DNA of 64,000 nt from a bacterium (lineage in GTDB: Bacteria > Patescibacteriota > Andersenbacteria > UBA10190 > CAIZMI01): assembly GCA_030647555.1 (NCBI GenBank), contig JAUSJG010000007.1:106181-170180 (forward strand). Direction: 5' to 3'. The notes under the pieces are model-generated. The model saw only the letters and a program-made list of their open reading frames with translations, searched no databases and was not told where the DNA came from. This document shows positions 2,904 through 58,854 of this stretch, piece by piece (position 1 is the first letter of the stretch; the number at the start of each line of letters is the position of its first letter). The position numbers were made by a program, and so were the translations under genes.

Positions 2904-3908
2904 CTACTTGATCTGGCGGATTTCGCGGGGGCTTTTGCGCACCCCTTGAAGTTGCTTGTGGCAGCGCTGTTTCAGCATCGCCACCTGCTCCGGCCCGCCG
3001 AACACTTTTGTGATTGCTCGCGCATCAAGACTCTCGAGCGCACTGATGTACTGTGTCGCGCCAGTGAAATCTTTCCATCCAACAGACTCATCGACGAGGC
3101 CTTTCAGTCTTATCGCTTCGACGATAAACAGCTCGATCAGCCGCTCGTCCAAAACGGCCAGCTCGGGATCATCCGGAATGAAAGTGTAACCATATCCGAC
3201 CGATTTCCGGACCATTTTTCTTTTGATGGGCTCAATACCCTCAAGCAGAAGTTTGGCCCCAGCAAGATCACCAGCTTCCATTCGTACCCGACACACCGCG
3301 AGAGACTCCTCTCGAAACCGTCGTGCATCCTCCTTAGCACGAACCTCGGCTTCCACGATTTCCCTCTCGACGGCTTCTTTGGCTGTTCTCTCGGCTTGAG
3401 CCTTGCTGTTAACCGCAGAAATGACCTGCACACGAAGTTCGTCATGTTTCCGTGTCAGTTCCGCGAGCCGCTCTTTCAAAGCCACAAGTTCATCATTTCG
3501 CGGCTTAACAAACGGAATGAGATACTTTTTCGTCTGAAGCAATCCTAAGCCTCGACTTGTCCAAAGCAACCTTTCTCCCGCTCGATCGAACGCATTTCGT
3601 GCGCCCGGATTGGCAATAACACTGGCATGTCCATCTTCAGCCTCGGCCAGGTATTTACCGCAATCGACGAAAATGAGATCGGCCCATTCCTTGTTCCGCT
3701 TATCAAGTTCGCGAAACAACCTGCTTCGCGCAGCCCCATATTGCCTCCTTAGGTCTTGGCTGCTCGTTTCAAGGATCGCATCCGTAAGCCAACTTGTGCA
3801 AGAGGCCAGTTCCGCTGGTTTAGAGGACTGGCTCGCCAACAATTGGGCGGCGTGACCGAGAAGCCACGTATTGTCGCGATCACGATCAATTTCAAACCCA
3901 TCATACAT
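2904..3908 (-). CDS. Hypothetical protein with long central coiled-coil/charged segment; GC-richer than surroundings
   Basis: 334-aa ORF; AGGAG Shine-Dalgarno 8 nt upstream of ATG; consensus-like promoter TTGACA-17-TACGAT on minus strand (rev-comp of ~3940-3975); no family recognised. Confidence 0.55.
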   Translation of the reverse strand: MYDGFEIDRDRDNTWLLGHAAQLLASQSSKPAELASCTSWLTDAILETSSQDLRRQYGAARSRLFRELDKRNKEWADLIFVDCGKYLAEAEDGHASVIANPGARNAFDRAGERLLWTSRGLGLLQTKKYLIPFVKPRNDELVALKERLAELTRKHDELRVQVISAVNSKAQAERTAKEAVEREIVEAEVRAKEDARRFREESLAVCRVRMEAGDLAGAKLLLEGIEPIKRKMVRKSVGYGYTFIPDDPELAVLDERLIELFIVEAIRLKGLVDESVGWKDFTGATQYISALESLDARAITKVFGGPEQVAMLKQRCHKQLQGVRKSPREIRQIK

Positions 3909-4018
3909 TGGATTTTCTCCTGTTATATTTATTCAGTTTTCCCACAGAACAACGGAAAATCGTACCCCCAAATTGGAGATTTGTCAATAGTACCGTTTGC
4001 GAGAATAATATGTAGGTA

Positions 4019-5287
4019 ATGGCAGAAATAAACACAGAAACGGAAACAACAATTCAATCGCCTGTCATTCCTACTGAAGCAGGAATCAGCAACGACCAGA
4101 AAACGGATTCCTGCTTCGGCAGGAATGACGATGTTGCCAACGAACTCTCTATCCTCCAAGCCCTCGCAGCCTTCCGACCAAATATCAACGCGTCAAAATT
4201 ACACGCCCTCATTAAATACGCTGGCAGTATTGAACAGGCTTGGGCAGTACCCGACGAAGCGTTGGAACAATACGGCTGGACTGCGGAACAACGACAATTA
4301 TTTAATGCTCACCGAAAAAATTATCAACCGGAAAAAGCACTGGAGCGCCTTTACCATTTAGGCATAGAGTTTATTCCCGACACTTCCCCTAAATTTCCAA
4401 AATCACTTCTTGATATATTCGATCCACCGCTTGGTCTTTATGTTCGCGGTAAACTTCACCAAAACAGTTTGAACATTGCTTTTGTGGGCAGTCGCAAAGC
4501 CACACCCTACGGAAAAACCGTTACAAACATGTTGGTGCGTCCGCTTGCCGCCAAAGGCGTCGTCATTATTTCCGGGTTAGCTTATGGCATCGATGCCGAA
4601 GCCCACCAGGCCACACTACAAAGCAATGGCACCACTTGGGCCGTCATGGGCAACGGTTGCGACGAAATGACTCTTTATCCACGCGCCCACCGCCAGTTAG
4701 CAAAAGACATTATTAATAATGATGGCGCGGTAATCAGTGAATATCCACCCGGCACACCGGGGCAACCCTATTTTTTCCCACAACGTAACCGCATTGTCTC
4801 CGGTCTTTCTCGCGCGATTGTTGTCGTGGAAGCAGGGCTACAAAGCGGTGCCCTAATCACCGCCCGCTTGGGCCTTGAACAAAATCGTGAAGTTTTCGCC
4901 GTTCCCGGCCCCATTACTTCGGAAATGTCCCAAGGAACCAACGAACTGATCCGCGATGGTGCGACACCTGTGAGTAGTGCCGAACAAATTATGGACGCGT
5001 TGGAACTGTTCTCTTTATTTGGCGGAATATCTCCCTCAAAAGCCGCGAGACAAATCTCCCACAAAGACATCGATGCCGTTTCAAATATTGTCGCAAGAAC
5101 CACTTCCAATCAACCGCAAAATGACCAAGAAAAAGTCTTAACTGTCCTTTCTACAAATCCGCTCGCTATTGACGAGATCGTAAAAGCCAGTACACTCCCG
5201 TCTCAAGTGGTAGGTTCTATTTTAACTCTTTTGGAAATTGAAGGTTTAGTCAAAGATATCGGCAATAAAAACTACACCAGAATTTGA
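4019..5287 (+). CDS. dprA: DNA processing protein DprA/Smf
   Basis: Rossmann-like DprA core (VVIISGLAYGIDAEAHQATL, FAVPGPI), SAM-like N-region; exact start uncertain (imperfect inverted repeat 4070-4130 lies inside the 5' end of the ORF). Confidence 0.8.
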   Translation: MAEINTETETTIQSPVIPTEAGISNDQKTDSCFGRNDDVANELSILQALAAFRPNINASKLHALIKYAGSIEQAWAVPDEALEQYGWTAEQRQLFNAHRKNYQPEKALERLYHLGIEFIPDTSPKFPKSLLDIFDPPLGLYVRGKLHQNSLNIAFVGSRKATPYGKTVTNMLVRPLAAKGVVIISGLAYGIDAEAHQATLQSNGTTWAVMGNGCDEMTLYPRAHRQLAKDIINNDGAVISEYPPGTPGQPYFFPQRNRIVSGLSRAIVVVEAGLQSGALITARLGLEQNREVFAVPGPITSEMSQGTNELIRDGATPVSSAEQIMDALELFSLFGGISPSKAARQISHKDIDAVSNIVARTTSNQPQNDQEKVLTVLSTNPLAIDEIVKASTLPSQVVGSILTLLEIEGLVKDIGNKNYTRI

Positions 5288-5322
5288 ATAATGATTGATG
5301 AATGATGATTTATGAATAATGA
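5288..5322. repeat. ATG/TCA-rich palindromic gene-boundary linker (family: GAATGATGATTTATGAATAATG / rev-comp)
   Basis: Copies at 5288-5322, 5690-5722, 10786-10812, 26182-26254, 43377-43452, 51641-51678, each abutting or overlapping a start or stop codon. Confidence 0.6.
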
Positions 5323-5701
5323 AAAAAATACCAAAATTACAGTTTTTACAGACCTTAACGCATGGAAAGAATCCCACAAACTTGTCTTGCTCACATACCA
5401 ATTAACAAAAACATTTCCTAAAGATGAAATGTATGGCTTAATTAGCCAAATGAGACGAGCGGCAATTTCGATAACATCAAATATCGCGGAAGGATTTGGC
5501 AGGCAAACTTATCCTGAAAAAATCCAATTTTACTCGATTGCCAAAGGTTCATTATCGGAATTGCAAAATCAACTAATAGCTTCCAGGGACACAAATTTGT
5601 TAAATGAAGATTCTTTTCAGAACGCGTTTAAACAAAGCATTACCGCCCATAAACTCATCACGGGATTAATAAGAAGGTCGCGCGAAATTCATCAATCATA
5701 A
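5312..5701 (+). CDS. Four-helix-bundle protein (23S rRNA intervening-sequence protein family)
   Basis: Signature ITSNIAEGFGRQ...FYSIAKGSLSELQNQL typical of TIGR02436-type proteins; bounded on both sides by ATGATGATTTATGAAT-type palindromic linkers. Confidence 0.8.
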   Translation: MNNEKNTKITVFTDLNAWKESHKLVLLTYQLTKTFPKDEMYGLISQMRRAAISITSNIAEGFGRQTYPEKIQFYSIAKGSLSELQNQLIASRDTNLLNEDSFQNAFKQSITAHKLITGLIRRSREIHQS

Positions 5702-5725
5702 ATCATCATTCATAATTCACGTATC

Positions 5726-7957: not shown

Positions 7958-8107
7958 ATATTGAAAACATCCCGCCTTCAGGCGAGGCTCGCCCCGATGG
8001 GCGGCCCCCTTCGCTCCGCCAGCGGGCGGAGCTACGGGGGATTGTTTTTCTCTGATGAGAAAAACAAAAAAACCTCCGACTCCCTGGGAAGTGAAGGTTG
8101 CTACTTT

Positions 8108-8908
8108 CTATTGATAATGGAAACGTCTGTGATCATTAAACCAGGAACGAATCGCGCGCCACTCCCTTGCACCATAAAACATCAGTAGCGGATCTTGCGC
8201 GTTCCCTTCCACTTCCAGAGCATATGATTCCGAAACATCATCTTCATCCCTCAACGGATACTCACCCCGTCGATCATCATCATCGTCAAGGACATCTGTG
8301 TTGATATGCATCAGCGCTAATGCAGCATTTTCCTCACTTAAGCCCCCGATTAGCCGAAGGACAACACGCCAAAACTCCTTCGGCGATAATCCCTCACGAA
8401 AGGAAACCTTTTCCACCTGACGAAGAACTGTAGGAAGATGGTCGGACAAACACGGATCCTTCTTCGCTTTTCCAGATTCACCGAACAAATATACTTCTTC
8501 AGGAACATATTCATAAGGAGTAATCCAGACCAGCAAATTACCCAGCAACACTGTGCGTTTTTCAATTTCCAAGTCTTTAAGTCGAAAAAGGAGATAATCG
8601 GCAACAATATCCTTCGGAATACTTCCGCACATCAGCAGACCCACAAGGTCTCGATAAAGAGGTAACGAATTTTGCATGTGAGATTCCCAAACTTCGCGCG
8701 ACATCTTGTCGTATTTTTTGGGTTTTAATTTTCTTGGATACTTCCGATACTCCGCCATGATGTGCCCAAGAACCAAAGACTGTTCACCTCTTTCTCCTTT
8801 AGACAAAAGACGCATCACCGCATAACCAATGTCGGTTTCATTCCGAAAACGCGTACGACACAAGCGGTCAGCCCACTTAAAGCACCCACTATCGTTTAAA
8901 TAACTCAT
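8108..8908 (-). CDS. Hypothetical protein
   Basis: 266-aa ORF with AGGAGG SD 6 nt upstream; acidic C-terminus (DDDDDRRGEYPLRDEDD); no family recognised. Confidence 0.5.
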   Translation of the reverse strand: MSYLNDSGCFKWADRLCRTRFRNETDIGYAVMRLLSKGERGEQSLVLGHIMAEYRKYPRKLKPKKYDKMSREVWESHMQNSLPLYRDLVGLLMCGSIPKDIVADYLLFRLKDLEIEKRTVLLGNLLVWITPYEYVPEEVYLFGESGKAKKDPCLSDHLPTVLRQVEKVSFREGLSPKEFWRVVLRLIGGLSEENAALALMHINTDVLDDDDDRRGEYPLRDEDDVSESYALEVEGNAQDPLLMFYGAREWRAIRSWFNDHRRFHYQ

Positions 8909-9026
8909 ATTGTTTCCTCCTATTTCTAGAATGGAAGAGAACTATCAAAAACAACCCTATTGTCAGCCTATTCTTAATTAGTACACCCAGTCAATTCGCG
9001 ATATATTTTTCAAACACTAATCAACC

Positions 9027-10711: not shown

Positions 10712-11072
10712 GTGATGCTCTCATTGTATATCTACGAGAAAGAATAGGAAACATGCGGTTATTTTTCATTCAATGAACCCAGATTTTGAATGATGAATGA
10801 TGATTTATGAATACTGAACCGCGATATCGTAGGGGCGGACGTCCCCGTCCGCCCGCGTCAACAATATCCAGTTTCTAGTTTCCAAATTTGTACCGGAGGA
10901 GGGAGTCCTTTTTCACCCAAAATTTCCGCTCGCTTTGCTCGAAGGAAATTTTCGGCGAAAAAGCCGGGGTTACATAAACAACTAAAGCAGTTTAGTTGTT
11001 TATGTAACCCTTCGACTCCCACACAAGTTGATTATATATAAAAGTCCCCAAATGGGGACTTTTATATATAAG

Positions 11073-11236: not shown

Positions 11237-12436
11237 TTACTCCGTTTCGAAAAATAAAATGTTCAAACTTCTTTTGGTCGGAACCAAAGCTAGCTCCGCA
11301 TGGCACCAGCGAAGAGGCTTGATATCGGGATGCCGTATAAGGGGAATTTTGGGTTCAAGATTTTTTATTAATGGAGTCCCTTCCCTTAATAATCGCAGAG
11401 TCTTTGTGCCACCTGCCAAATAAGTTTTAGGGATTAATACATTGTTTTCTTTAAGGTTTTGTTCATAGTTTGCATCGGGGTTAATTCCAAGCAAATAAGG
11501 CTTCAGTATTTGTAATTTTTTTTCATACTCATCAGTTCCTGGTCTAAGCAAATCTATTTCATTTTTTTCTTCATAGGGATCTTCAGCCATCTTTCTTGTG
11601 TCAGGATTACTCATTACGGAATCAATATATTCGTTCAAATTTTCACTTCTATTGCTGAATACAAACACAGGTGTTCTGAACCCGCTCCCCATCCACAGAT
11701 TTCGAGTTGTACACCAAATTTCAGATCGTGCAATTAAATCCCCAGGAAACTCTCCTGATAAATCGGCGGCCCGAGACCGTTCGCCACCAGTTTTATAAAT
11801 TTCTTCAACACCATCATCAGAGTTTTTATAAAAACGCAAAACACTATCATTAACATCCTCTGTTCGCCTGGGAAAAATTTCTTGAAAATACATTCCTTCA
11901 TCAATAAATTTCCTTACTCTTCTAGCGGGACCATCCCCCTTAGATGCTCGCGTGGTAATTAAGCCAATTTCCAAAGCATGAATCCAAGCACTGTCGTTTG
12001 GATATTCACCATCGGTTAGAAATGAATATACATCATCAAATTTTGAAACTGCTGAAAAGAAAGGAACTTTTTCTTGAAGCGCTTCTCCCTCTTTATTAAT
12101 TTGATAGATCTCTTCTTTTGTTTCGCCTGCTGGAACAAGAAACCCCTCCGGAAACGGCGGTAACATCTCTCTTCTGCGAATTCTCTTTACTCCCGTTTCT
12201 TCTTGGCGATGTTTTGGCAATTCAATCACTTTTTCGCGGTACCTGATGCCAAGATCTTTATTTTCAACTATTTCGCCCCATTTACCTGGTTTCCCTTCCG
12301 GTTCGACAAAATCAGCGGGCATTTCAACTTTTTCGATTGATTCCGATTTTGCCTGTCCTGATTCAGCTTCTGGCAATTGTTCCGGTTCCGGATTAAACCG
12401 CGGTGCTTGTTCGTTCATGTTTGAATTGTATATCAT
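11237..12436 (-). CDS. Hypothetical acidic protein (~400 aa)
   Basis: Long ORF without SD (like other native genes); 5' end of the longest ORF overlaps a 42-nt REP-like palindrome, so an internal ATG (12436 or 12418) is more plausible. Confidence 0.5.
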   Translation of the reverse strand: MIYNSNMNEQAPRFNPEPEQLPEAESGQAKSESIEKVEMPADFVEPEGKPGKWGEIVENKDLGIRYREKVIELPKHRQEETGVKRIRRREMLPPFPEGFLVPAGETKEEIYQINKEGEALQEKVPFFSAVSKFDDVYSFLTDGEYPNDSAWIHALEIGLITTRASKGDGPARRVRKFIDEGMYFQEIFPRRTEDVNDSVLRFYKNSDDGVEEIYKTGGERSRAADLSGEFPGDLIARSEIWCTTRNLWMGSGFRTPVFVFSNRSENLNEYIDSVMSNPDTRKMAEDPYEEKNEIDLLRPGTDEYEKKLQILKPYLLGINPDANYEQNLKENNVLIPKTYLAGGTKTLRLLREGTPLIKNLEPKIPLIRHPDIKPLRWCHAELALVPTKRSLNILFFETE

Positions 12437-12467: not shown

Positions 12468-12509
12468 CCGATCACGGAGCGGAGCAACCTTGCTCCGCTC
12501 CGTGATCGG
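12468..12509. repeat. Solo REP-like palindrome (20-bp arms) CCGATCACGGAGCGGAGCAA-CC-TTGCTCCGCTCCGTGATCGG
   Basis: Perfect inverted repeat read directly; same GGAGCAA/TTGCTCC core as palindromes flanking the RAYT gene. Confidence 0.8.
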
Positions 12510-12550
12510 TACTGGTTGTCACGCCCGCCTTTTTTCCCTACACTTCCCGT

Positions 12551-12697
12551 ATGCCCAGTAATACAACTTCCAATTACTGGATTAATTCCTAACTCTTGAA
12601 TGAATAAATATGCACAAATTGAACTTCTTAACCTTATCTTCCGCCAGTTTTGAACGAACCGCGTTCGTTCAAATTGGAAGTTGATATACTGGGTATG
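12551..12697 (+). promoter_or_regulatory. Conserved leader element copy 1 (upstream of ugd)
   Basis: Distal GCCCAGTAATACAACTTCCAATT, internal hairpin TTGAACGAA-CCGCG-TTCGTTCAA, proximal AATTGGAAGTTGATATACTGGGT-ATG. Confidence 0.6.
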
Positions 12698-14047: not shown

Positions 14048-14063
14048 TTACTAACCAGCTTAC

Positions 14064-14829
14064 CACCTACGAGGTGGAGCAACCTTGCTCCACCTCGTAG
14101 GTGGTGCAAGGCAATAAATTTATTCCAAACAAAGAGCCTTAATTTGTGCAAGCTCTTTTTGATAATTCGCTTGATCATTTGTAAATTTTTCGTATTGTTT
14201 TCCCGAAAACGGCATCAGCCCTGAATAATCGCAAACTGGAAATTTCACACTATCGCTTTTTACATACTCTAAAAATGAAGAATATGGCCAATCGGATGCT
14301 TTCTTGACTAATCCCGCGCTAACCGGATTCAAGTGGATATAGCGCGTTAAATGCAAAAAATGATTATCGTTGCTTACATTAACACTCTGAAAACGCCCTA
14401 CCCAAAGAGGCCCCTTTCGTTCAATTTTTGTATTAAAGTAACGAGCATAAGCATTAGAAACATCAGACAGATATTTTTCAATCCCGTGCTCTTTCAATTG
14501 TTTTACGACAAGATGAAAATGTGTCGGCATTAAGCCATAACAAATGACTTGAATGGATTTATCCTTATCCGCTAACACTCGGCTTATTTCTTCTTCAATA
14601 TTTTCTTTGTGAATTTTTACATCACGTAAAAATTGAGAGTATTTCTGTCGAACACCGGCATATGTGTAATACCTGATTAAATTTTTCATATGAAAAAAAT
14701 CGCCCTCCTTTTGAAATATTCTAAACCCCGCTATGCTTTTATTCATCACATGATAAATTTCACCATTTGCTAAAATATCTTTTCGCATAAAGTTATTATA
14801 ATCCCAAAATCATCTTTGCTCCACCTACG
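14064..14829. mobile_element. REPtron-like unit: RAYT gene bracketed by REP-like palindromes sharing the core GGAGCAA-NN-TTGCTCC
   Basis: Left 40-nt palindrome CACCTACGAGGTGGAGCAACCTTGCTCCACCTCGTAGGTG (14064-14103), right hairpin TTGCTCCACCTACGAGGTGGAGCA (14806-14829). Confidence 0.6.
14120..14788 (-). CDS. IS200/RAYT-type Y1 (HUH) transposase, COG1943-like
   Basis: HUH motif PTHFHLVV and C-terminal catalytic tyrosine context RYIHLNPVSAGLV...DWPYSSF typical of REP-associated tyrosine transposases; flanked by palindromes at 14064-14103 and 14806-14829. Confidence 0.75.
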   Translation of the reverse strand: MRKDILANGEIYHVMNKSIAGFRIFQKEGDFFHMKNLIRYYTYAGVRQKYSQFLRDVKIHKENIEEEISRVLADKDKSIQVICYGLMPTHFHLVVKQLKEHGIEKYLSDVSNAYARYFNTKIERKGPLWVGRFQSVNVSNDNHFLHLTRYIHLNPVSAGLVKKASDWPYSSFLEYVKSDSVKFPVCDYSGLMPFSGKQYEKFTNDQANYQKELAQIKALCLE

Positions 14830-14949
14830 AGGTGGAGCAGGTTGACAAAACCACCCCAAAACGCAACACTGCCCTGTTGCGTCAATGTTGACGTGACGGC
14901 TGTGCGCATACCACAGTCATGCACATTTCTACTTCAGGGAGACATCGCC

Positions 14950-15414
14950 ATGTCTACGTCCGCGCAAACCGGAAAAAAGCCTAACAATCTCACTATCCAG
15001 TGGTGGATAGCAACGCTCGCCGACTTCTTCTCGCAAGCAGTCGACTTCATCAAAAAGGGATCACGATCCCAAGAGATGATTAATGCTTTGCTTAAAGCAT
15101 TTCGACTCTTCAAAGAAGACAAACTCCAGTGTGTCCTAAGCAAGGATGAATGTTCGACCGACATTGATTTCTATTTGAAGGTTTTGCGTCCAGGAACTAT
15201 TTTCCAGCTGGAAAAAGCAGGAAATGAAATTCGAATTTGCGACGCAAACTATAAAACAATCTACTGGCCTGGTCACCGCGCATGGATATCGATTCCGAAC
15301 ATCGACAGCATGGATCGCCTCTGGGACCTCATCTTCGGAATAAATCAAATGACTGGTTCAGGTTTAAAACTGGCTGAACACCAGGGCAATGAAATTCAAT
15401 TACTGAAACGTTAG
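14950..15414 (+). CDS. Hypothetical protein
   Basis: ORF with GGGAGA SD 8 nt upstream of ATG at 14950; followed by strong rho-independent terminator. Confidence 0.5.
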   Translation: MSTSAQTGKKPNNLTIQWWIATLADFFSQAVDFIKKGSRSQEMINALLKAFRLFKEDKLQCVLSKDECSTDIDFYLKVLRPGTIFQLEKAGNEIRICDANYKTIYWPGHRAWISIPNIDSMDRLWDLIFGINQMTGSGLKLAEHQGNEIQLLKR

Positions 15415-15424
15415 CCCCCCCCCT

Positions 15425-15452
15425 CACCACCGCACCACGGTGGTTTTTTTAT
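15425..15452 (+). terminator. Rho-independent terminator
   Basis: CACCACCG-CACCA-CGGTGGT hairpin followed by TTTTTTT. Confidence 0.75.
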
Positions 15453-28314: not shown

Positions 28315-28357
28315 TAAATTGAATCAAGGTCGAATTATACGAGAAAACTACTATTAT

Positions 28358-46329: not shown

Positions 46330-46502
46330 CGCCGGGAAAGATTGCTTGGAGGGTAAATGAAACCCACACTTCGCCCACCCTTCGCATAAAGCTACGGCGT
46401 GGCGCGGTAAAGCTTCGCGGGGCAAGTTTTCTTTTCCGTCAGTCATACGCAATGAGCATAGGAAAATAAACGCGTCTAGGCAAGCCGTGAACACCAGCAC
46501 CC

Positions 46503-46568
46503 ATCCCCCGTCGCTAAAGCTATGGGGGATTGTTTTTCTTTTGCGAAAGAAAAACAAAAAAACCGCGT
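46503..46568. repeat. Composite hairpin module: ATCCCCCGTCGCTAAAGCTATGGGGGAT + TTGTTTTTCTTTTGCGAAAGAAAAACAA + A7 + ACC + third hairpin
   Basis: Other copies 2781-2871, 8030-8073, 22469-22525 (inverted). Confidence 0.65.
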
Positions 46569-46586
46569 GGTTAGCTGCGGTTGTGT

Positions 46587-47018
46587 TTACTCCGGCAAGG
46601 GCGTCGCTTCAATCGCCGTGAGATCAAACGGGATTTCAACCTCATCATAATTCACCCCACTTGCGGAAATTCGTAAGGTGTTTCCTCCACTGTGTTCATC
46701 GTAGTCACCCTTGACGAAACGATTGTTGCAAGAAAACGTAACAAAACCATTGCCAATCCGATCCATCATCGGCTGAATTGAACTGGTAGCTGATCCACTA
46801 CGAAGGTCATGAAAACCAAGGGCAATCCCAATGCTTTCGTCGTATTGCTCCTCCGGCGCGAACGTCGCAACCGACTGCGTCAAACCCTGAGTGTGGTCGA
46901 TAAGCCAGCAAAATGCCTTCACAATGATCAGTTCATTCGGAAATCGCTCGGCTACTGCCCGTTTTAGGCGCAATAAATTCTCGTCCGACACGCGCGGAAA
47001 AACTTTTGGTTCCGACAT
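46587..47018 (-). CDS. Hypothetical protein (143 aa), GC-rich
   Basis: AGGAG SD upstream. Confidence 0.5.
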   Translation of the reverse strand: MSEPKVFPRVSDENLLRLKRAVAERFPNELIIVKAFCWLIDHTQGLTQSVATFAPEEQYDESIGIALGFHDLRSGSATSSIQPMMDRIGNGFVTFSCNNRFVKGDYDEHSGGNTLRISASGVNYDEVEIPFDLTAIEATPLPE

Positions 47019-47123
47019 GGCAAAATACTCCTATTCGACCATTTGGAAAATACACAAGGAACGACCCTCGTACTGTATTTTATTATGTTTGAGACGTCAA
47101 CTGAATCAGTGACCGACCCAGTG

Positions 47124-50771: not shown

Positions 50772-50916
50772 ACCCAGTATATCAACTTCCAATTTGAGCG
50801 ATTTCGAATCGCTCAAAAGAAGAACCGGTTAATGTTAAAACATTCCTCGGGCCCATACACAAAACCAATAGTTCTCGCTGAAATTTGAAATTGGAAGTTG
50901 TATTACTACTGGGCAT
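50769..50916 (-). promoter_or_regulatory. Conserved leader element copy 3 (upstream of argS)
   Basis: Hairpin TTGAGCGATTCGAAATCGCTCAA (covarying), proximal arm ends in start ATG. Confidence 0.6.
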
Positions 50917-51078
50917 TGCTTTAGTATAGCATTTATAGCACTAAATACCGAAAAATGACCAGAATAATTACGCGACGCTGGCGATGCCTGTCTTTTTGCC
51001 GTTTACAAATAAAGTATTTAGTTTTAAATTGATCGCGCGTCTCAACACACAATGTACATTCGTCAAAGGATACGGCAA

Positions 51079-51591
51079 ATGAACAGGTTACAAGAAGTTC
51101 TTGCCCTTACAGACATGATTGTGCGTATTCTGCCCAGGCTGGTCGCCGAAGTCAGGAAACAAAACATCAAGACACTTCTCGATATGGTTGATCTCGGTTC
51201 ATTCACCTCCAGATCACAGCTCGAATCTGTTCTTGATGAGGTACTCAGAAACAAGTGCGCCACGAGATCATACACGGACAGCGAAAGTGAGATTCGTCTC
51301 TTCGCTGGTTTCCTGGGAAGACTGAAGAAGGCTTGGGAACAAGAAATTGTGGTCACCTTCACAGAAAGCGGCAACCGCCTGTACGTTACCTACGCACTGC
51401 CACCGGAAAAAAAGCGAGCAACAGTCCCCTCCCAGCTCATCGTGGCGCATGGAGACGGTGCTTCAATGACGGGTCTGACGGACCATGATCTCCTGCGAGA
51501 CATTGACATTGCGATCCAAGCCGGACAGACCCCCGCTGAGCAAGTCCTCTCCTTGGCAAAACTTGGTCACGCAGCCAGTGAACCGGGGTGA
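51079..51591 (+). CDS. Hypothetical protein, GC-rich
   Basis: AAAGGA SD 8 nt upstream of ATG 51079. Confidence 0.45.
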   Translation: MNRLQEVLALTDMIVRILPRLVAEVRKQNIKTLLDMVDLGSFTSRSQLESVLDEVLRNKCATRSYTDSESEIRLFAGFLGRLKKAWEQEIVVTFTESGNRLYVTYALPPEKKRATVPSQLIVAHGDGASMTGLTDHDLLRDIDIAIQAGQTPAEQVLSLAKLGHAASEPG

Positions 51592-51681
51592 CAAATACAT
51601 CCAACCCACCGACCCTGTCAAAGAGCCGGTTTTTATTACCTTTCCAAAATCATCAATCATCATTCATAATTCATTACAGTT

Positions 51682-52925: not shown

Positions 52926-52943
52926 ATACCGCACTGCCGAAAT

Positions 52944-52979
52944 TAAAAAACCGCCACTGTCTCTAAGAAACATTGGCGG
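52944..52979 (-). terminator. Rho-independent terminator for minus-strand gene 52998-54035
   Basis: AAAAAA + CCGCCACTG-loop-CATTGGCGG (one mismatch) on plus strand. Confidence 0.6.
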
Positions 52980-52997
52980 GTCTTTGCGACTCAATCG

Positions 52998-54035
52998 CTA
53001 CGCGCTTCTCATGATCACCTCCGGTGCTTCACTTACCAGGCAACGAATTCCGGCGTTCATCCACACTGGATAGTAACGAATCGGGACGGCAGTAGTGAAG
53101 ACATTTTCGCGACCAACAATGTCCGCGACCAACGCCTCCACATCGGGATCACCGGAAGTCATGAGCACACGCCCACCATCCACCTGCAATAGATTAAGGG
53201 CGTATGGAACACATAATGTCTGGGCTGGCACATGCACTGTGATGTCGAGCGGTTTACAGACCCGCTGAAGCAACGCAACTGTTTCTCCCGGTTCACGTGC
53301 TGTCCAGTTCTGTCCCTGAAGCCACTCCGTGGAAAAGTTCAAACGATCCATTACGAAATGGAGCGACTTGTCTTGAGCCGAGAGCAGTGTGCCAATCCGA
53401 TCCAGGTGGTCGTTGTATGAAACCTTTTCCGTTACACCACCCCAGCCATAACGAAGGGCCACAAGAAAAGGTATTTCTCCAAACTGCATACCCATCTCGC
53501 GCAAAATCTGCACATCGTCTTCCCAAAGCGACCGTGACGGTCCAACATCTTCGGTTCGCAAACGATCACCGATAAGTGCTGTTCTTCCGGAGTAGAGCAT
53601 GCGTCCGCCCTCACCCCACACAGACTTCGCAATCCGCCACCCATCCTTAGATGAGACGACGCTCTCAATCCCACAAGGATTGAGGAGCAGCGTTTTCAAA
53701 TCCTGATGGACAGTACAGAAGTCTCGCGGATACAGGACGGTTGAAGGGGCGTGACCCGGAAACGCCGCCAGCCTACAACCCAACGCTTGATTGAGAGTAA
53801 ACACATAGGCTTGGTCGACCTTGGTTATGTCGCGACACACGATTCGAAAATCGACACTCATCTGTTTCAGAGCATAAGCGATCGCCGCGTGCTCCCTTCT
53901 CAGATTTTCTGCCACGATAGCCATCGTCCTGGACTCATCCAAGACATCTTGGCACAACCGCGCTTGGCCAGCGGGGGCGAAGAAATCGTTTCGACGCGCG
54001 ATATTAAACTTCGGTTCTCCCAGTAGGTACATCAT
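52998..54035 (-). CDS. Hypothetical protein, possibly pentein/amidinotransferase-like fold
   Basis: GGAGG SD, start likely at second ATG pair; C-terminal GIRCL could be a catalytic-Cys motif; assignment speculative. Confidence 0.45.
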   Translation of the reverse strand: MMYLLGEPKFNIARRNDFFAPAGQARLCQDVLDESRTMAIVAENLRREHAAIAYALKQMSVDFRIVCRDITKVDQAYVFTLNQALGCRLAAFPGHAPSTVLYPRDFCTVHQDLKTLLLNPCGIESVVSSKDGWRIAKSVWGEGGRMLYSGRTALIGDRLRTEDVGPSRSLWEDDVQILREMGMQFGEIPFLVALRYGWGGVTEKVSYNDHLDRIGTLLSAQDKSLHFVMDRLNFSTEWLQGQNWTAREPGETVALLQRVCKPLDITVHVPAQTLCVPYALNLLQVDGGRVLMTSGDPDVEALVADIVGRENVFTTAVPIRYYPVWMNAGIRCLVSEAPEVIMRSA

Positions 54036-54113
54036 TCGACCCATCCTCCAAAAAGAGATTAAATTTTCAAAAAAGGACGACCCTCTACTATACTTATATT
54101 TTCACGATTGTCA

Positions 54114-54147
54114 ACGCATCGTAATGTAACACGCATCGTAATGTAAC
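54114..54147 (+). repeat. Tandem direct repeat 2 x ACGCATCGTAATGTAAC in divergent promoter region
   Basis: Read directly; partial inverted copy GCATTACATTAG at 54306-54318. Confidence 0.7.
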
Positions 54148-54412: not shown

Positions 54413-54441
54413 TTGACAAATTCAAATAAATCTTATAATAT
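54413..54441 (+). promoter_or_regulatory. Consensus sigma70-type promoter TTGACA-17nt-TAATAT
   Basis: Read directly; lies upstream of ATG 54503, so the upstream TTG of the longest ORF is the -35 box. Confidence 0.6.
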
Positions 54442-54502
54442 ACTACGTTCAGTTACGGAACGATTTTTTGACAATTTTCCTCCTTCTTCAGGGAACCCTG
54501 CC

Positions 54503-56317
54503 ATGTCCATGTCAATGGGATGTTACGTCGGTGCGTATCTCACTCAAGCGGTCGTTCAGGTTGCATCACTATCCCCAATCCAATGGAGCCTGCTCAGTGC
54601 GTACGCCAAATACGGCTACGGCCCACCTCCTTACGTCGAGCCGACGTATGAGGATGAAACTTTCCACCCCCGGCTCAAGCTCAAACTCCAACAGATCGTC
54701 GGCTTTGAGGAGATGGAACACTCCCTCCGCATGCAGTATGTCGACGCGGCCAACGAAGTATTTCGTTTCGCCTACACACGCGGACGAGATGAGGACGATG
54801 AACAGAAAGGATTCTACAAAATCCCCCTCCTGCGCAATCGCCGGATCATGGATGATCCAGAAGGCATCGACCGCATCAAGATTCGCATTAGTCGCGCGGA
54901 ATACGAACGTGCCAACGCGATCCTGGAAGCCGTCGGCGAACTGGAAAGGATCGCACGCGCCATTCCATACTACGAGCTGTACTGCACGGTCAAGAAAAAC
55001 CTGCGGCGTCAGTTCAAAGTTGGGCTCGATGATGTGGTCTTAGTATCGATTGACCGCGGTGGTCGACTCCCCTGCATCATCCTTCAACGAGCATTGAACA
55101 TGCCCTGCATGTTCTCGCTCAAAGTAGACCAGGGCGGACGAGGCCTGGACGAAGACCGTCTCCTCGAATTCGTTTCGGACGGCACTCTGCGAGACAAGCA
55201 TGTCCTCTTTGTGGACTCGACCGTGGATTCGGGACGTCAGATCCGAGTGTTAGAGCGTTACTTCGATGATTCCAACTGGCGAGCCAGACTGGGACACCGA
55301 AGTTGGTCCATCGTCGGATCAAACGACTACGCCGAAAATCTCGGTCACCACTTGAACGTCAATTGGGGTGTCGATCCCGACCGAACGTTTGAGGACAACC
55401 CCCAACTAATGGGGATCGACTACGCTCCGGGAAGTCACACGAAGGTCGTTGATTTTCCGTCGCAAGCCGCGACCGACATTCGCAGATGTTTGTTGGCAGT
55501 GCCGGATGGCTACATCTACACTACCTCAGACATCGACGAACAACTCGCCACCCAACGCGAAAAATGGCAGCAACGCCAAAAGGAGCGTCGGGCGGAACAC
55601 AGACGGCAAGTGGCGACAGAAAAAGCGACTCATCGAAGCGAAACAGCGCAACATCGACAGCGAGTGAAGGCTGCCGACAAGGCCGATCGTCTCGATCGTG
55701 AATTGCGACGAATCACCTCTTCCAAGCGTTGGCAAGCACTCAAGCGTGCAAGCCAAAGTCTGCCGGAAGAGACATTGCCTCAAGCGGTTCAAAACGGGCA
55801 AGCCCACGAAATGCACAACGTGCTAATCGTGGGCGCGCGCCAGCAGAACCTGCCACAGGCAACGGTAGATTTCGTCGCCGACAACCTTGGCCCTCACTGC
55901 TCACTGTTTGCCGGAACGCCCAAAGGCAACCCCGGCGCCGTCCTCAAGGCGGTGCTGGCAAGCCAGAAGGTTCCGCAACCGGAGGTGCGTCTGTATCAAA
56001 CAGAGCACATGCGGGGACAAGTCGATCCAGCATTCGGCAACTCGCCGGTCGTGTTCGTCGGTCCAGACAAGCACGACGTGCGCTACAGGATGATCGATGA
56101 CTCGCACGCAGTCCTCGCTCTGGGTGGAGAAGATGGGACGCTGGAAGAAGTGCTCCAAGCACTTCTCTCGGATAAGCCCACCTTCATTATCTCGGGTTAC
56201 GGACCAGTCGCCGCCTACGTCGCCGGTAGCAAGCAGCTTCGAAAGAAGAAGAGCTTGCACATCTGTTCCAGTGTGGCCGAGGCGGTACAGCTGATCCTAG
56301 ACGCGTCCAAAGCCTAG
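54503..56317 (+). CDS. Multidomain protein: unknown N-domain + type-I phosphoribosyltransferase (PRTase) domain + highly charged helical linker + LOG/SLOG (Lonely-Guy-like) domain
   Basis: PRPP motif HVLFVDSTVDSGRQI and upstream VVLVSIDRGGRLPCIIL; linker QREKWQQRQKERRAEHRRQ...; LOG motif AVLALGGEDGTLEEVLQAL...KPTFIISGYGP. Confidence 0.6.
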   Translation: MSMSMGCYVGAYLTQAVVQVASLSPIQWSLLSAYAKYGYGPPPYVEPTYEDETFHPRLKLKLQQIVGFEEMEHSLRMQYVDAANEVFRFAYTRGRDEDDEQKGFYKIPLLRNRRIMDDPEGIDRIKIRISRAEYERANAILEAVGELERIARAIPYYELYCTVKKNLRRQFKVGLDDVVLVSIDRGGRLPCIILQRALNMPCMFSLKVDQGGRGLDEDRLLEFVSDGTLRDKHVLFVDSTVDSGRQIRVLERYFDDSNWRARLGHRSWSIVGSNDYAENLGHHLNVNWGVDPDRTFEDNPQLMGIDYAPGSHTKVVDFPSQAATDIRRCLLAVPDGYIYTTSDIDEQLATQREKWQQRQKERRAEHRRQVATEKATHRSETAQHRQRVKAADKADRLDRELRRITSSKRWQALKRASQSLPEETLPQAVQNGQAHEMHNVLIVGARQQNLPQATVDFVADNLGPHCSLFAGTPKGNPGAVLKAVLASQKVPQPEVRLYQTEHMRGQVDPAFGNSPVVFVGPDKHDVRYRMIDDSHAVLALGGEDGTLEEVLQALLSDKPTFIISGYGPVAAYVAGSKQLRKKKSLHICSSVAEAVQLILDASKA

Positions 56318-56375
56318 TCGCTCTTTCCTCGTTCAATTCCCCGTTGATTCACATTCGTGAATCGCGGGGATTTTT

Positions 56376-58160
56376 TTATTCCTGCTTGTTAACCGTCTGA
56401 TATTTTTCCCAAAGCTCAACGAATTCGGGAGAGTCTTTCAGTAATTGCTCAAGTGTCCCCGACGCAATAATTTTTCCGTCTTTAAAGAAATAAATTTCCT
56501 CGAATAGACGTAACAAGTGCAACCGATGAATGGACGCTAAAATCGATTTCTTTTTAAACTTCGCGAAAATGTTTTGGAAAATAATCAGTTCGTTTTGCGT
56601 ATCAATCGAGCTTGTCGGTTCATCCAGTAAAACAATCGATTTATCGTCGCAGGCCATTAGTCCGCGCGCGAGAGCAAGCCGTTGTTTTTCCCCACCGCTC
56701 AAATTGACGCCCTTCTCAACAATATTGGAATCCAGTTTCTTGGGCAGACTCTCAATGACGTCGGAAATACAAGCCATATCGGTAAACTTTTTTATATAGG
56801 CCGGTTTATAGTTGATACCCATCGTAATATTTTCTCTAATCGTAGTGGAAAAAATTTCCGGATCTTGCGGAATCAACGCGATATCTTCGCTAATCGATTT
56901 AAATCCTTCTTTTAGCAACTTACCGTCAAGATAAAGCTGAATATCTTGCGGACTATATAATTCCCGAATAATTTTTAAGAAAGTTGTTTTTCCGCTCCCG
57001 CTTTCACCGATCAAAGCAATCCGCGCGCCGTTTTTTATCGTCATTGAAACATTATCCAAATGCAATTCCGCGCCGTGGTAAGGGTGATAAGAAAAACTCA
57101 ATCCGGAAATTTTCAACTCGCGCCAATTCGCTTTCAACTCGATTTGTTTCACGCGCTTTATGTCGCTGAAATCTTTGGCCAGTTCTTCCGCGTTCATCAC
57201 CGCCGATTTACGTTGCACAATAATGCCATACATAGAAGCAAAACGGAAAAAGATATCGCTGATGCGATCCACATAACCATACAACGCGTAAACCGTTCCC
57301 ACCAAAATCACCGTTCCCGCGTTGATGTTGGCAAGAAAATACGACCCCAAAACAAGGACCGTCATTAAACTACTGCACACCGACACAAAAAACCATTTTG
57401 TTTCATTAATCCTGTTGTTTCTCACCACCAGTTTAAACGGTGCCATAATTTTTTCGTAAATGGCGGACGACACTAATTTTTCAATCCGCAAAATTATTAC
57501 CGTTGTGATATTGCTGATTGAATCAAAAACTTTCTCGGAAATTTTGTTTTCCGCGGAATAAATTTCTTTGTATTGTTTCACCAGTACTTTATCAAATTGC
57601 GTGATGAGCGTGATGGTAAAAATAACAACAGCGAGCACAATAAAACCGGCATAGTAATTAAAATAGGATAATATAATACATGATGTGATTAAACGCACCG
57701 ACGCCTCAATTATTTCAAACGAATCCTCCGAAAAACGGAATAGCGAAGTCGTGCCTTTTTCCACCTTATCAATTGTGTCACCGGAATGATGATCAACGTG
57801 CCACTCAATCGGCAAAGCCATCACGCCGTCCAATAAATATTTTTTGTAATTGGCGCGCACCCAAAACGCGTTTTTTTGCTCGATTAAACGAGATGGACCG
57901 TGAAACGTCCAAAACACTAAACTGATTAGAAAGAAAATCCCTAAATATATCAACAACAAAGGCAAACTTTCATTTGTAACACCTCTGGCCTGAACCACGT
58001 TCAGTAATTTTGCCATTACTAACGGCCAAAGAGAACTAACACCATTGGCAACAATAGACAACAAAACATACAAGATGACTTTTTTTCGATTGCCTTCGGC
58101 ATATTTCCAAAGCCGAACGGCTAAAAACAAAATGGGGTTATTACTTAACTTCATTTTCAT
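56376..58160 (-). CDS. ABC exporter, fused permease-ATPase
   Basis: 6 TM N-domain; Walker A GESGSGKTT, signature LSGGEKQRLALARGL, Walker B VLLDEPTSSID. Confidence 0.9.
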   Translation of the reverse strand: MKMKLSNNPILFLAVRLWKYAEGNRKKVILYVLLSIVANGVSSLWPLVMAKLLNVVQARGVTNESLPLLLIYLGIFFLISLVFWTFHGPSRLIEQKNAFWVRANYKKYLLDGVMALPIEWHVDHHSGDTIDKVEKGTTSLFRFSEDSFEIIEASVRLITSCIILSYFNYYAGFIVLAVVIFTITLITQFDKVLVKQYKEIYSAENKISEKVFDSISNITTVIILRIEKLVSSAIYEKIMAPFKLVVRNNRINETKWFFVSVCSSLMTVLVLGSYFLANINAGTVILVGTVYALYGYVDRISDIFFRFASMYGIIVQRKSAVMNAEELAKDFSDIKRVKQIELKANWRELKISGLSFSYHPYHGAELHLDNVSMTIKNGARIALIGESGSGKTTFLKIIRELYSPQDIQLYLDGKLLKEGFKSISEDIALIPQDPEIFSTTIRENITMGINYKPAYIKKFTDMACISDVIESLPKKLDSNIVEKGVNLSGGEKQRLALARGLMACDDKSIVLLDEPTSSIDTQNELIIFQNIFAKFKKKSILASIHRLHLLRLFEEIYFFKDGKIIASGTLEQLLKDSPEFVELWEKYQTVNKQE

Positions 58161-58195
58161 ATTTTAGCACAACGCTATATTTTTGCTTTTTGTTT

Positions 58196-58417
58196 CTAAC
58201 TAAAGTAGTTGGAAATTTTAAATCCCGCCCAAATACCGACAAAAGCACCAACACCGCTTAGCAAAATCGGCGTAAAAGAAAACATATCCGCGCCCCAAAG
58301 CGAAGGAATCAACCCGCCAATCGTGGATCCCACAAACATTCCACCCCAAATCAAAATTTTTGAATTCACCTTGTTATTATACCCTATCGGCACAAGAAAA
58401 AACCGACACAATTTCAT
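58196..58417 (-). CDS. GlsB/YeaQ/YmgE-family small membrane protein
   Basis: Gly-rich two-helix pattern GGMFVGSTIGGLIPSLWG...GVGAFVGIWAGF. Confidence 0.55.
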   Translation of the reverse strand: MKLCRFFLVPIGYNNKVNSKILIWGGMFVGSTIGGLIPSLWGADMFSFTPILLSGVGAFVGIWAGFKISNYFS

Positions 58418-58854
58418 GTCGGCTCAACACCAGCCTGCGGAACCTCGACTTCATTTTCCAATTTCGCATCTTCAGTGACCACTCGAATGTCGATAATTGC
58501 CAGGGGGTCGGAATCACGGAAGAATTGCTGAATCGGGCCCGCGTAACCGAGAGTAACAGCAACTAAAGCACCAACCGGAAAATCCTTAAGCCGTTCGTCA
58601 TCCACTCCGACTGTGAGGATCGTTGCACCCCCCTGAAGATGACAGTTGTCTAAGGCCGACAGCTTCGATTGCGCACTTTGGTTAAAGACCTTAACATGCT
58701 CGGGATTAAGGCGGATTTCAATCATCCTCATTCGATTCTTAAATATCCACCAACTGGTCTCACGAACGGTGTGCGCCGTCACTGTCCCGCGCAGGACATA
58801 CAAACAACGCTGACCACCGCGAGGGTTGCAAGCTCGAAACATTGTGCCTGGCAT
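58414..58854 (-). CDS. Hypothetical protein (146 aa), GC-rich
   Basis: AAGGAG SD 7 nt upstream. Confidence 0.5.
   Translation of the reverse strand: MPGTMFRACNPRGGQRCLYVLRGTVTAHTVRETSWWIFKNRMRMIEIRLNPEHVKVFNQSAQSKLSALDNCHLQGGATILTVGVDDERLKDFPVGALVAVTLGYAGPIQQFFRDSDPLAIIDIRVVTEDAKLENEVEVPQAGVEPT

Follow-up and report, generated by a model that had tools for sequence, protein, structure and literature searches.

Probable Shine-Dalgarno-bearing accessory gene cassettes beside a Shine-Dalgarno-poor core in a 64-kb stretch of a Patescibacteria genome

In the Actinobacteria and in Deinococcus ('group C' of GeneMarkS-2) leaderless and Shine-Dalgarno (SD)-led genes are mixed, with the SD class found mainly inside operons. 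The Bacteroidota are SD-independent, with an anti-SD that is present but sequestered and with A-rich leaders; the few genes that do carry an SD (e.g. rpsU) are conserved ribosomal or regulatory ones. A gene module described in different terms is the moron of prophages, an autonomous gene with a sigma-70 promoter and a factor-independent terminator, placed between genes that are adjacent in relatives and deviant in G+C content (PMC3714127). Here we compare with these systems a 64-kb stretch of bacterial DNA (the window; 64,000 nucleotides with 44.8% GC, positions 106,181 to 170,180 of contig JAUSJG010000007.1, assembly GCA_030647555.1), in which two classes of genes can be told apart by their expression signals: a cohort of approximately 16 GC-richer genes without assigned function, most of them preceded by an SD, and the remaining genes of the window, referred to as native, most of which have none.

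Fifty gene models were fixed, and pairing to the anti-SD was scored for positions -20 to -3 against CACCUCCUUU, with an SD called at ΔG ≤ -6.5 kcal/mol. By this measure an SD precedes 13 of the 24 genes without a Pfam match and 1 of the 26 genes with one (Fisher p = 8e-5), a split between hypothetical and housekeeping genes stronger than that stated in the original prediction. The starts of the named housekeeping genes, said there to lack an SD, have anti-SD duplex energies of -4 to +3.6 kcal/mol, Tgt being the only exception (GAGGT 13 nt ahead of its GTG). An AAGGAG/GGAGG sequence had been assigned to all the hypothetical genes then listed: this stands for most of them, since AGGAG/GGAGG-type boxes lie 4–9 nt before the starts at 3908, 8908, 47018, 54035 and 58854 (reverse strand) and 22094 (forward strand), and likewise before those at 38606, 39179 and 37955 (reverse strand) in the gene island described below, but the boxes are weak at 41074 (reverse strand, AAGGA), 33166 (reverse strand, GGGGGAAGGAAA before a TTG start) and 51079 (forward strand, AAGGA, ΔG -6.0). 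To the listed genes we add 14950–15414 (+), 59073–59432 (+), 60981–61745 (-), 61950–62795 (+), 37620–37955 (-) inside the island, and possibly 43126–43293 (-); the gene at 54503–56317 (+) has the promoter, terminator and GC content of the cohort, yet no clear SD.

The contrast does not depend on the choice of start codons. When any ATG, GTG or TTG within 15 codons of the first ATG is accepted as a start, an SD is still found in 13 of 16 cohort genes and in 2 of 35 others (p = 1e-7), a comparison that mainly measures robustness to start choice, as the cohort is partly SD-defined. SD-like scores ahead of the internal ATGs of cohort genes give a background of 0.10–0.11, and against the value of 0.11 the cohort count is 12–13 of 16 (P ~6e-9 for 12 or more). 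The starts of the native genes are supported by an independent gene call that matches LeuS exactly, and by the position of the ATG, which is kept in the orthologs of the nearest locus found in genome collections, from a lake metagenome-assembled genome (L002, IleS 89% identical), and of a JGI contig (L084, IleS 80% identical); no SD was seen at alternative starts of native genes.

Other signals accompany the SD. Promoters were called from at least 5 of 6 matches to TTGACA, a spacer of 16–18 nt and a -10 box of the TAnnnT type, and terminators from a hairpin with ΔG ≤ -8 plus a T-run, no more than 60 nt past the stop codon. Exact TTGACA occurs 29 times in the window: 12 copies sit 56–108 nt upstream of the starts of cohort genes, in the correct orientation and with TAnnnT after 16–18 nt, as had been proposed for genes of this type, and throughout the window none is found upstream of a Pfam-annotated gene. 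A -35/-10 promoter is called for 13 of the 16 cohort genes, and in an independent consensus scan of 44–64 kb all four sites that combine exact TTGACA with 10 or more of 12 matches are cohort promoters; a generic scan yields no total excess of promoter-like sites (33 versus 31 expected), so that the best-scoring sites alone are informative. A hairpin and T-run terminator follows 14 of 16 cohort genes and 4 of 34 native ones, and a fifteenth cohort terminator (that of hyp46587) was found by reading the sequence. The SD genes were also correctly described as GC-rich: within the window their GC and GC3 (GC at third codon positions) are 0.497 and 0.526, versus 0.441 and 0.432 for the rest (p ~3e-4). 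In a leave-one-out comparison of codon likelihoods 13 of 16 cohort genes fit the cohort model and 31 of 34 native genes the native model; the cohort shift is chiefly toward C- and G-ending two-fold codons (NNC 0.49 versus 0.27, p = 3e-6).

As the 16-gene cohort was assembled partly on the SD, the non-circular evidence is provided by tests between pairs of features. Over 51 genes, the SD, the -35 promoter, the terminator, high GC3 and the lack of a Pfam match are all associated pairwise, with p from ~4e-4 to 3e-6 (for SD and promoter 8e-6, SD and terminator 3e-6, SD and high GC3 1e-4, promoter and terminator 2e-4, terminator and GC3 1e-5). The pairwise association of the five features shows that two gene classes exist without a circular definition.

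The native genes have signals of a different kind. A TAnnnT hexamer with its 5' end at -16 to -9 is found in 17 of 24 promoter-proximal native genes, against a background of 0.26 further upstream (P = 5e-6); the same arrangement occurs in 3 of 16 cohort genes. The box ends approximately 6–7 nt before the ATG, as in TATAAT-AACTTT-ATG at the gene of a RAYT-type transposase or in LeuS (21967–21980, reverse strand: TAAAAT, 7 nt, ATG), with similar starts at 14788 (the RAYT gene), 27895 (a membrane protein), 59563 (subtilisin), 33798 (hyp33286), 12418 (hyp11237) and 4019 (DprA); a -10 box, 6 nt and ATG are also kept in the ArgS orthologs. From this distance, leaderless or near-leaderless mRNAs are therefore predicted for these genes. 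Native genes within operons, among them ParB, AI-2E, M16, the second nucleotidyltransferase and the FkbM methyltransferase, either overlap the gene ahead of them or begin shortly after it, again without an SD. As an example, the block of GlyRS, M16 peptidase, AI-2E transporter, MetG and TatD (25418–32156, reverse strand) has overlapping stop/start junctions, no SD, no terminators and no TTGACA upstream of gene starts, the exact copies in this region lying within coding sequences. The SD-independent native regime that had been proposed is in this way supported both for operon-internal genes and for promoter-proximal ones, in which the -10 box directly adjoins the ATG, and it is general in Patescibacteria loci: by a crude first-ATG pipeline an SD is found there at 0–23% of starts, mostly at 12% or less, versus 38–59% in Firmicutes loci passed through the same pipeline.

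Short repeats of the ATCATTCAT / TGATGAATGATGA type were noticed upstream of native genes (TopA, ParA, TatD/MetG, SmpB), at 5280–5322, 5689–5711, 10775–10817, 26179–26267, 43377–43455 and 51642–51672; those upstream of SmpB are conserved in L002 and L084. They may represent a native promoter-region motif.

The conserved genes of the window include Mfd, DprA, TopA, ParAB, UDP-glucose dehydrogenase (Ugd), the RAYT-type transposase, LeuS, RarA, TatD, MetG, GlyRS, Tgt, RecO, IleS, ArgS, SmpB, an ABC transporter and subtilisin; numerous other genes have no Pfam match at all, and a tRNA-Leu is the sole Rfam match (at the gathering and E ≤ 1 thresholds). Proteins identical to those of the window are encoded on a 172-kb contig of an NCBI metagenome-assembled genome (locus tags Q7S57_) and in an independent Logan assembly. 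The order SmpB-ArgS-IleS-RecO-DUF11-GlyRS-M16-AI2E-MetG-TatD-LeuS is common to the window and to Paceibacteria loci L076–L081, with Staskawicz-, Wildermuth- and Zambryskii-bacteria among the Paceibacteria that share it. Judged by this shared order, the source is therefore a small-genome bacterium of the Patescibacteria (Candidate Phyla Radiation, CPR), Parcubacteria/Paceibacteria-like. A cyanobacterial origin, of which the HIP1 repeat would be a sign, was rejected, GCGATCGC being present only once in the window.

The cohort genes interrupt the core gene order that is contiguous in L076–L081. With the close relatives the comparison covers 33–56 kb of the window, and several differences can be recognized there. 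The gap between SmpB and ArgS, occupied by hyp51079 in the window, is 148 nt long in L084 and holds an unrelated open reading frame (ORF) in L002; hyp52998 is missing from L002, where the locus is taken by another gene, GC-richer and with AGGAG 6 nt ahead of the ATG; hyp47964 is absent from the relatives. The island at 37620–41180 (reverse strand) starts from a promoter (TTGACA at 41175, 17-nt spacer, TACAAT) followed by a conserved hairpin in the 5' untranslated region (5'UTR), and comprises hyp39797 (39797–41074, 425 aa, AAGGA box, terminator), hyp38706 (38706–39179) and hyp38115 (38115–38606), both with an AAGGAG-type SD and a terminator, and a 111-aa ORF (37620–37955) with an AAGGAG-type SD. 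L084 has the first two at the same locus (84% and 72% identical, respectively), with synonymous divergence (dS) of 0.49 and 0.70 versus 1.9–3.7 or saturation in the flanking native genes, a difference from which mobility of the island is deduced. The window and L084 can be aligned from precisely the -35 box of the island promoter onward, the DNA between this box and the upstream gene being unrelated, and a homologous module (a 423-aa gene, then small GC-rich genes) stands in quite different neighborhoods in L082 and L085. Taken together, the island dS, the boundary at the -35 box and the changed neighborhoods therefore indicate mobility for at least some of the cohort.

The ORFs of the cohort are genuine genes: they have GC1 > GC3 > GC2 in frame and ratios of nonsynonymous to synonymous divergence (dN/dS) of 0.18–0.25, and hyp52998 has a confidently predicted fold with invariant Cys, His and Asp residues (see below). 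Among the 14 cohort proteins scanned none has a Pfam match at the curated cut-off; PADLOC gives no match and PHROG no confident one (three weak sub-threshold matches only), and in an all-against-all BLAST no cohort protein is paralogous to another. Family sizes at 50% identity extend from zero clusters (hyp8108) to considerably more than a hundred (hyp52998); most of the 267 matches in the representative library map to the latter. All the homolog contexts that we recovered are contigs of CPR type in which housekeeping genes lack an SD, Candidatus Doudnabacteria and Berkelbacteria included, and no donor lineage outside CPR was found among these contexts. In the homolog-bearing contigs an SD is found in 16 of 41 genes without a Pfam match versus 7 of 60 with one (p = 0.002), and it is associated with TTGACW (p = 8e-4).

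The signals persist in these homologs. The SD is kept in 3 of 3 orthologs of hyp46587, 4 of 4 homologs of hyp39797 and 5 of 5 homologs of hyp52998. The orthologs of hyp46587 are 52–54% (L002) and 40–41% (L084) identical, with AGGAG-7-GTG and GAGGAGG-7-ATG; the five homologs of hyp52998 (37–51% identity) have GGAGG, AGGAG or GAGGA 5–9 nt before the ATG, and four of them TTGACW at approximately -70 to -85. Retention at 35–54% protein identity and with saturated dS indicates that the signals of the cohort are under selection in CPR genomes, and hence that the ribosomes of these bacteria should be able to use an SD. EF-P, GroES and UppS of relatives also carry one, so that these lineages can probably make use of SD-led initiation.

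The explanation that on balance we regard as probable is that of a leaderless, SD-independent core into which moron-like accessory cassettes have been inserted from a gene pool shared within CPR. Core genes would be transcribed from -10-only or extended -10 promoters approximately 6–7 nt before the ATG, giving leaderless or nearly leaderless messages; the downstream genes of core operons would start at overlapping or close junctions without an SD, and core units would lack hairpin terminators. The ~16 accessory genes would be self-contained, mostly monocistronic cassettes, each with a sigma-70 promoter (TTGACA, 17 nt, TAnnnT), a leader of 40–75 nt, (A)AGGAG(G) 6–9 nt before the start, a GC- and C3-enriched ORF without Pfam family and an intrinsic terminator. 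Sitting between core operons, the cassettes would be gained, lost and exchanged as insulated modules, moving as units from promoter to terminator.

The original prediction read the cohort instead as horizontally acquired genes that retain the signals of their donors. The first part of this claim stands in a restricted form: synteny breaks, absences in L002 and L084, codon usage and the dS of the island describe genes that are compositionally distinct, non-core and partly mobile, while hyp46587 looks vertical, an old resident unlike the island. The second part, in its explicit form a recent acquisition from SD-using bacteria outside CPR with signals that are unselected leftovers, we consider decidedly unlikely. 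It would account for signals close to the E. coli/Bacillus consensus, for the atypical GC and codon usage, and for interrupted synteny with several genes missing in close relatives; against it, homologs were recovered solely from CPR-type contigs, whose housekeeping genes have no SD, and the SD, usually together with the -35 box, persists at a divergence at which unselected relics would have decayed. The 14 proteins without a Pfam match offer no domain link to other phyla, the failure of PADLOC and PHROG to give a confident match points the same way, and a single codon signature across the cohort is not what diverse donors would be expected to leave. A rival that comes closer, and that we rate as unlikely rather than remote, holds that the cohort consists of vertical, lineage-specific genes in need of strong or regulated expression, with a composition shaped by selection. 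The presence of hyp46587 in each of the three relatives, its signals kept at a saturated dS, the confinement of the codon shift mostly to two-fold NNC, the SD of EF-P, GroES and UppS in relatives, and the lack of a GC excess of the SD genes over the others in two GC-rich hosts, L088 and L089, are all in its favor. It accommodates poorly the presence/absence and same-locus replacements among relatives whose IleS are 80–89% identical, the interruption of a deeply conserved gene order, an island whose dS is at least 4-fold below that of its flanks with a similarity boundary at the promoter, and the occurrence of the same families in unrelated neighborhoods of other CPR genomes.

True phage morons, or scattered degraded remnants of prophages or plasmids, seem very improbable indeed. 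The succession of promoter, gene and terminator and the deviant GC match the definition of a moron (PMC3714127), a SocA/Panacea antitoxin-like gene lies at 63230–63817, and the homologous module of L082 has hammerhead-like cores flanking its small genes; on the other hand the window has no phage structural, integrase or replication genes and PHROG matches that are absent or marginal, the hyp39797 and hyp52998 families have no relatives in 2.9 million IMG/VR contigs, and housekeeping operons stand between the cassettes, which are spread over at least 60 kb. An artifact of wrong starts or strands, chance G-rich boxes or a chimeric assembly is essentially excluded. GC-rich DNA does raise the chance of G-rich motifs, to the background of 0.10–0.11 given above, and some cohort starts were picked among close alternatives, but the start-agnostic count, the position-specific signals (SD at 4–9 nt, -35 box at 56–108 nt), the co-occurrence of four independent features, the homologs, dN/dS values below 0.3 and confident fold that confirm the reading frames, and the recurrence of the same junctions in independent assemblies all speak against it.

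To return to the CPR-shared accessory cassettes, a number of points weigh against this explanation. hyp46587 was already in place before the three relatives diverged (saturated dS, dN/dS 0.19). Four-fold sites differ little between the two classes (0.59 versus 0.52), and the two-fold shift toward NNC and NNG could be due to selection rather than to foreign origin. No transposase, integrase or flanking repeat that would explain the insertion of cassettes was found. The replication loci L082 and L086–L089 were picked because they carry a cohort homolog, and so have an ascertainment bias; in a further 23 related loci from metagenomes, which bear a miniature inverted-repeat transposable element (MITE)-like element described below (213 kb, 166 ORFs), the association of SD, promoter, terminator and GC3 is weak and only that of SD and terminator reaches p = 0.018. 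These loci do confirm an SD-poor regime, with a rare SD (7%) and a common -10 box near starts (60%); the two-class pattern is described here for the lineage of the window. The leaderless status of native mRNAs and the lengths of leaders are predictions. Finally, no 3' end of a 16S rRNA turned up in the window or in the 89 collected loci, so that the function of the SD is inferred only; approximately half of the Parcubacteria 16S genes are reported to be without the CCTCCT anti-SD (PMC9297842), and native genes do not avoid SD-like words in their interior to any remarkable degree (GGAG ranks 35th of 256), which makes this avoidance an uninformative proxy for a working anti-SD.

With regard to the anti-SD, we infer from the conserved boxes that the 16S rRNA of this lineage keeps a working anti-SD that reads the SD of the cassettes. 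The opposite possibility, that the 16S rRNA has none and that AGGAG boxes, promoters and terminators act otherwise, or in a host or recipient after transfer, as modules for cross-organism expression, appears very unlikely. Parcubacteria that lack uL1 are reported to overlap the anti-SD-lacking group. An arrangement that fits such bacteria was observed in the CPR contig L087, which carries a hyp52998 homolog: at 17878–19684, SecE-NusG-L11 are followed by a dCMP deaminase gene in place of L1; yet three adjacent genes have strong AGGAG boxes and TTGACW promoters.

The individual cassettes are as follows. hyp2904 (cassette 2835–3987, reverse strand) has TTGACA at 3987, a 17-nt spacer, TACGAT and a predicted leader of ~44 nt; its coding sequence (CDS; 2904–3908, 334 aa, GC 0.53) has AGGAG 8 nt before the ATG at 3908 and a hairpin with T-run ~58 nt past the stop, and its family of ~3 clusters at 50% identity has no Pfam, PADLOC or PHROG match. 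The weakest promoter call, with a TTGACT-type -35 box, is that of hyp8108 (cassette 8060–8994, reverse strand; CDS 8108–8908, 266 aa), with AGGAGG 7 nt before the ATG at 8908 and a terminator at +36; no homolog other than itself was found among 1.8 billion representatives. On the forward strand, hyp14950 (cassette 14842–15452) has TTGACA at 14842, GGAG 8 nt before the ATG at 14950, a CDS that extends to 15414 and a terminator at +29, while hyp22094 (cassette 21998–22472; CDS 22094–22417, 107 aa) has a perfect TTGACA-17-TATAAT, a predicted 61-nt leader, the SD AGGAGGT and a terminator at +45; the latter gene, called independently on Logan contig L001 where it adjoins LeuS, has one homolog (55%). 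TTGACA-16-TATACT precedes hyp32492 (cassette 32455–33254, reverse strand; CDS 32492–33166), whose TTG start at 33166 follows the G-rich GGGGGAAGGAAA and whose terminator is at +27. A possible small cassette, tentative, is found at 43126–43370 (reverse strand: TTGACA at 43370, GGAGGGG before a GTG at 43293, 55-aa ORF); its ORF at 43126–43293 shows no conservation at the DNA level in L002. hyp46587 (cassette 46550–47100, reverse strand; CDS 46587–47018, 143 aa) combines TTGACG-17-TACAGT and AGGAG 9 nt before the ATG at 47018 with a hairpin AACCGCAGCTAACCACGCGGTT and T-run directly past the stop.

In hyp51079 (cassette 51002–51591, forward strand; CDS 51079–51591, GC 0.52, two-fold NNC 0.76) the promoter is TTTACA-17-TAAATT, a weak AAGGA lies 8 nt before the ATG at 51079, and there is no convincing terminator. 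hyp52998 (cassette 52940–54114, reverse strand; CDS 52998–54035, 345 aa) has TTGACA-16-TATAGT, GGAGG 9 nt before the ATG at 54035 and a terminator at +46. hyp54503 (cassette 54413–56382, forward strand; CDS 54503–56317, 604 aa, GC 0.56), has TTGACA-17-TAATAT, a predicted 55-nt leader without a clear SD and a strong terminator at +52; it has weak similarities to phosphoribosyltransferase (PRTase) and SLOG proteins and is possibly a gene of a conflict system. Toward the end of the window two divergent pairs can be recognized. hyp58414 (cassette 58390–58932, reverse strand; CDS 58414–58854; ~5 homolog clusters) has TTGACA-17-AACAAT, TAAGGAG 6 nt before the ATG at 58854 and a terminator that overlaps the stop region; opposite to it, hyp59073 (cassette 58975–59487, forward strand; CDS 59073–59432) has a weak SD, AGGA, and a terminator at +45, with a promoter, TTGCCA-17-TACAAA, that was read by eye and is not called by the stricter -35/-10 criteria. 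hyp60981 (cassette 60920–61834, reverse strand; CDS 60981–61745) has TTGACA-17-TAGTAT, AAAGGGG before the GTG at 61745 and a terminator at +50, and is divergent from hyp61950 (cassette 61845–62848, forward strand; CDS 61950–62795), with TTGACA at 61845, AAGGAG 7 nt before the ATG at 61950 and a terminator at 62818–62848. In 5 of the 13 cohort promoters of the window (e.g. 3950, 22035, 41140, 47065 and 54445), and in several of the relatives (L084–L086), CGTT, often as YCGTT, is found 3–8 nt past the -10 box, against a chance expectation of ~0.5 by a rough hand estimate; this may be a motif that they share at the start site or in the initial transcript.

Some products and transcripts of the cohort deserve a closer description. 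The AlphaFold2 (AF2) model of hyp52998 (pLDDT 94.8) has the predicted fold of the penteins, guanidino-group-modifying enzymes; Foldseek gives a probability of 1.0 to DDAH, amidinotransferases, ArgZ and arginine deiminase (TM 0.4–0.6), in the face of no Pfam match at E ≤ 0.01, Amidinotransf and PAD_porph included. Across 38 sequences C332, H210, D212 and E142, candidates for a catalytic Cys near the C-terminus with its His and acidic partners, show no variation, nor does a GEGGR motif. In the moderate model of hyp39797 (pLDDT 75) a Cys-rich N-terminal region, a long coiled coil and beta-barrels toward the C-terminus are predicted, and the fold search returned no significant match, only weak OB-fold-like ones. 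The 5'UTR hairpin of the island, ACCGCTYCGGCTGAAATGCCGGACA (41101–41125, reverse strand), precedes the start by 20–25 nt in each of the four hyp39797 homologs (window, L084, L082 and L085), and it is kept although the homologous proteins are only 40–47% identical; it may be a regulatory RNA element. Within the island, 39217–39661 (reverse strand) is a candidate structured non-coding RNA of ~440 nt, with its own TTGACA/TATACT promoter at 39692, an intrinsic terminator and no plausible ORF (minimum free energy -180 kcal/mol, z = -6.2). It is ~90% identical overall to L084 11153–11606, and ~96% over the 5' 179 nt, with conservation that starts just past the -10 box and one hairpin exchanged for an unrelated one; it has no Rfam match, a covariance model finds just these two known copies in the collected loci, and a scan of IMG/VR was negative. 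In L082 a hammerhead-like core (CUGAUGAG...CGAAAC) was noticed before each of three small GC-rich genes (~11540–11600, 11905–11951 and 12539–12587); two of these cores score 29 bits against Rfam Hammerhead_3 (threshold 48.5), and none is found in the island of the window.

An element of ~138 bp that resembles a MITE occurs three times next to native starts. Its ends are inverted repeats of 22 bp (CCCAGTAATACAACTTYCAATT ... AATTGRAAGTTGATATACTGGG), and a palindrome of 23 bp with compensatory changes lies in its interior. Copy 1 (12554–12693, forward strand) lies between an older promoter plus ATG and the ATG of Ugd (12695), copy 2 (32157–32293, reverse strand) abuts the ATG of GlyRS (32156), and copy 3 (50773–50910, reverse strand), absent from the ArgS orthologs of L002 and L084, abuts the ATG of ArgS (50771). 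Each copy is placed exactly between an older start of the form '-10, 6 nt, ATG' and the ATG of the housekeeping gene. The ATG looks as if it had been duplicated, and an extended -10 box immediately ahead of the start is provided by the repeat nearer to the gene, so that the element resembles a portable leaderless promoter. Among metagenome contigs with the exact repeat, 34 of 43 have an ATG within 0–1 nt followed by long ORFs, and 7 more are compatible with a GTG.

A few other features of the window were noted. GGACC is strongly depleted in native coding sequences (2 observed versus 20.7 expected from codon shuffles over the whole window), which suggests avoidance of a restriction site. A 60-nt repeat is present at 46367–46426 and 15491–15550 in copies that are 87% identical, of which one is intergenic and the other lies in frame in the N-terminal coding part of IleS, adding 20 codons relative to L002. 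Palindromic elements similar to repetitive extragenic palindromes (REP) are found at 12468–12508, 41244–41284, 14063–14103 and ~14800–14860 (CCGATCACGGAGCGGAGCAACCTTGCTCCGCTCCGTGATCG; a second type, CCACCTACGAGGTGGAGCAA..., stands on both sides of the RAYT-type transposase gene, 14120–14788). The SocA/Panacea antitoxin-domain protein at 63230–63817 has signals of the native type.

If the pattern held genome-wide, a CPR bacterium would keep two expression grammars side by side. Gene finding and start calling in Patescibacteria would need a separate treatment of the two classes, genetic tools would need a promoter and a ribosome-binding site fitted to the class, and the accessory or mobile gene pool would be recognizable from its signals alone, with the type of signal as a handle for asking which genes mediate the symbiotic lifestyle. 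The pattern also bears on whether SD-anti-SD pairing still works in lineages reported to be losing the anti-SD.

These results can be set against the systems described so far. The cassettes are like phage morons in having a promoter on one side and a terminator on the other, in interrupting a region contiguous in relatives, in differing in G+C and in being exchangeable; unlike morons, they sit between chromosomal housekeeping operons with no phage genes nearby, their families are restricted to CPR and, hyp52998 excepted, have no known function, and the contrast with their surroundings reaches translation (SD versus leaderless or SD-less). From classical genomic islands, with which they share atypical GC and codons, absence in close relatives and discordant divergence, they differ as single genes at no fewer than 13 sites, without integrase, tRNA target or flanking direct repeats, and with a GC above that of the host, where acquired DNA is usually AT-richer. 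As in the Actinobacteria and Deinococcus, promoter-proximal genes have a -10 box at a fixed short distance and a second class uses the SD, but here the internal native genes have no SD, and the SD class is an accessory one with promoters and terminators of its own. As in the Bacteroidota, the genome is largely without SD and a minority of genes has strong boxes, but the SD genes of the window are variable and without known domain family, and the native mode is leaderless-looking. The Parcubacteria that lack an anti-SD (Tsurumaki et al. 2022, PMC9297842) belong to the same broad lineage and would explain the SD-less core; no SD-bearing class of genes is described there, and without an anti-SD the conserved AGGAG boxes of the cassettes would be left unexplained.

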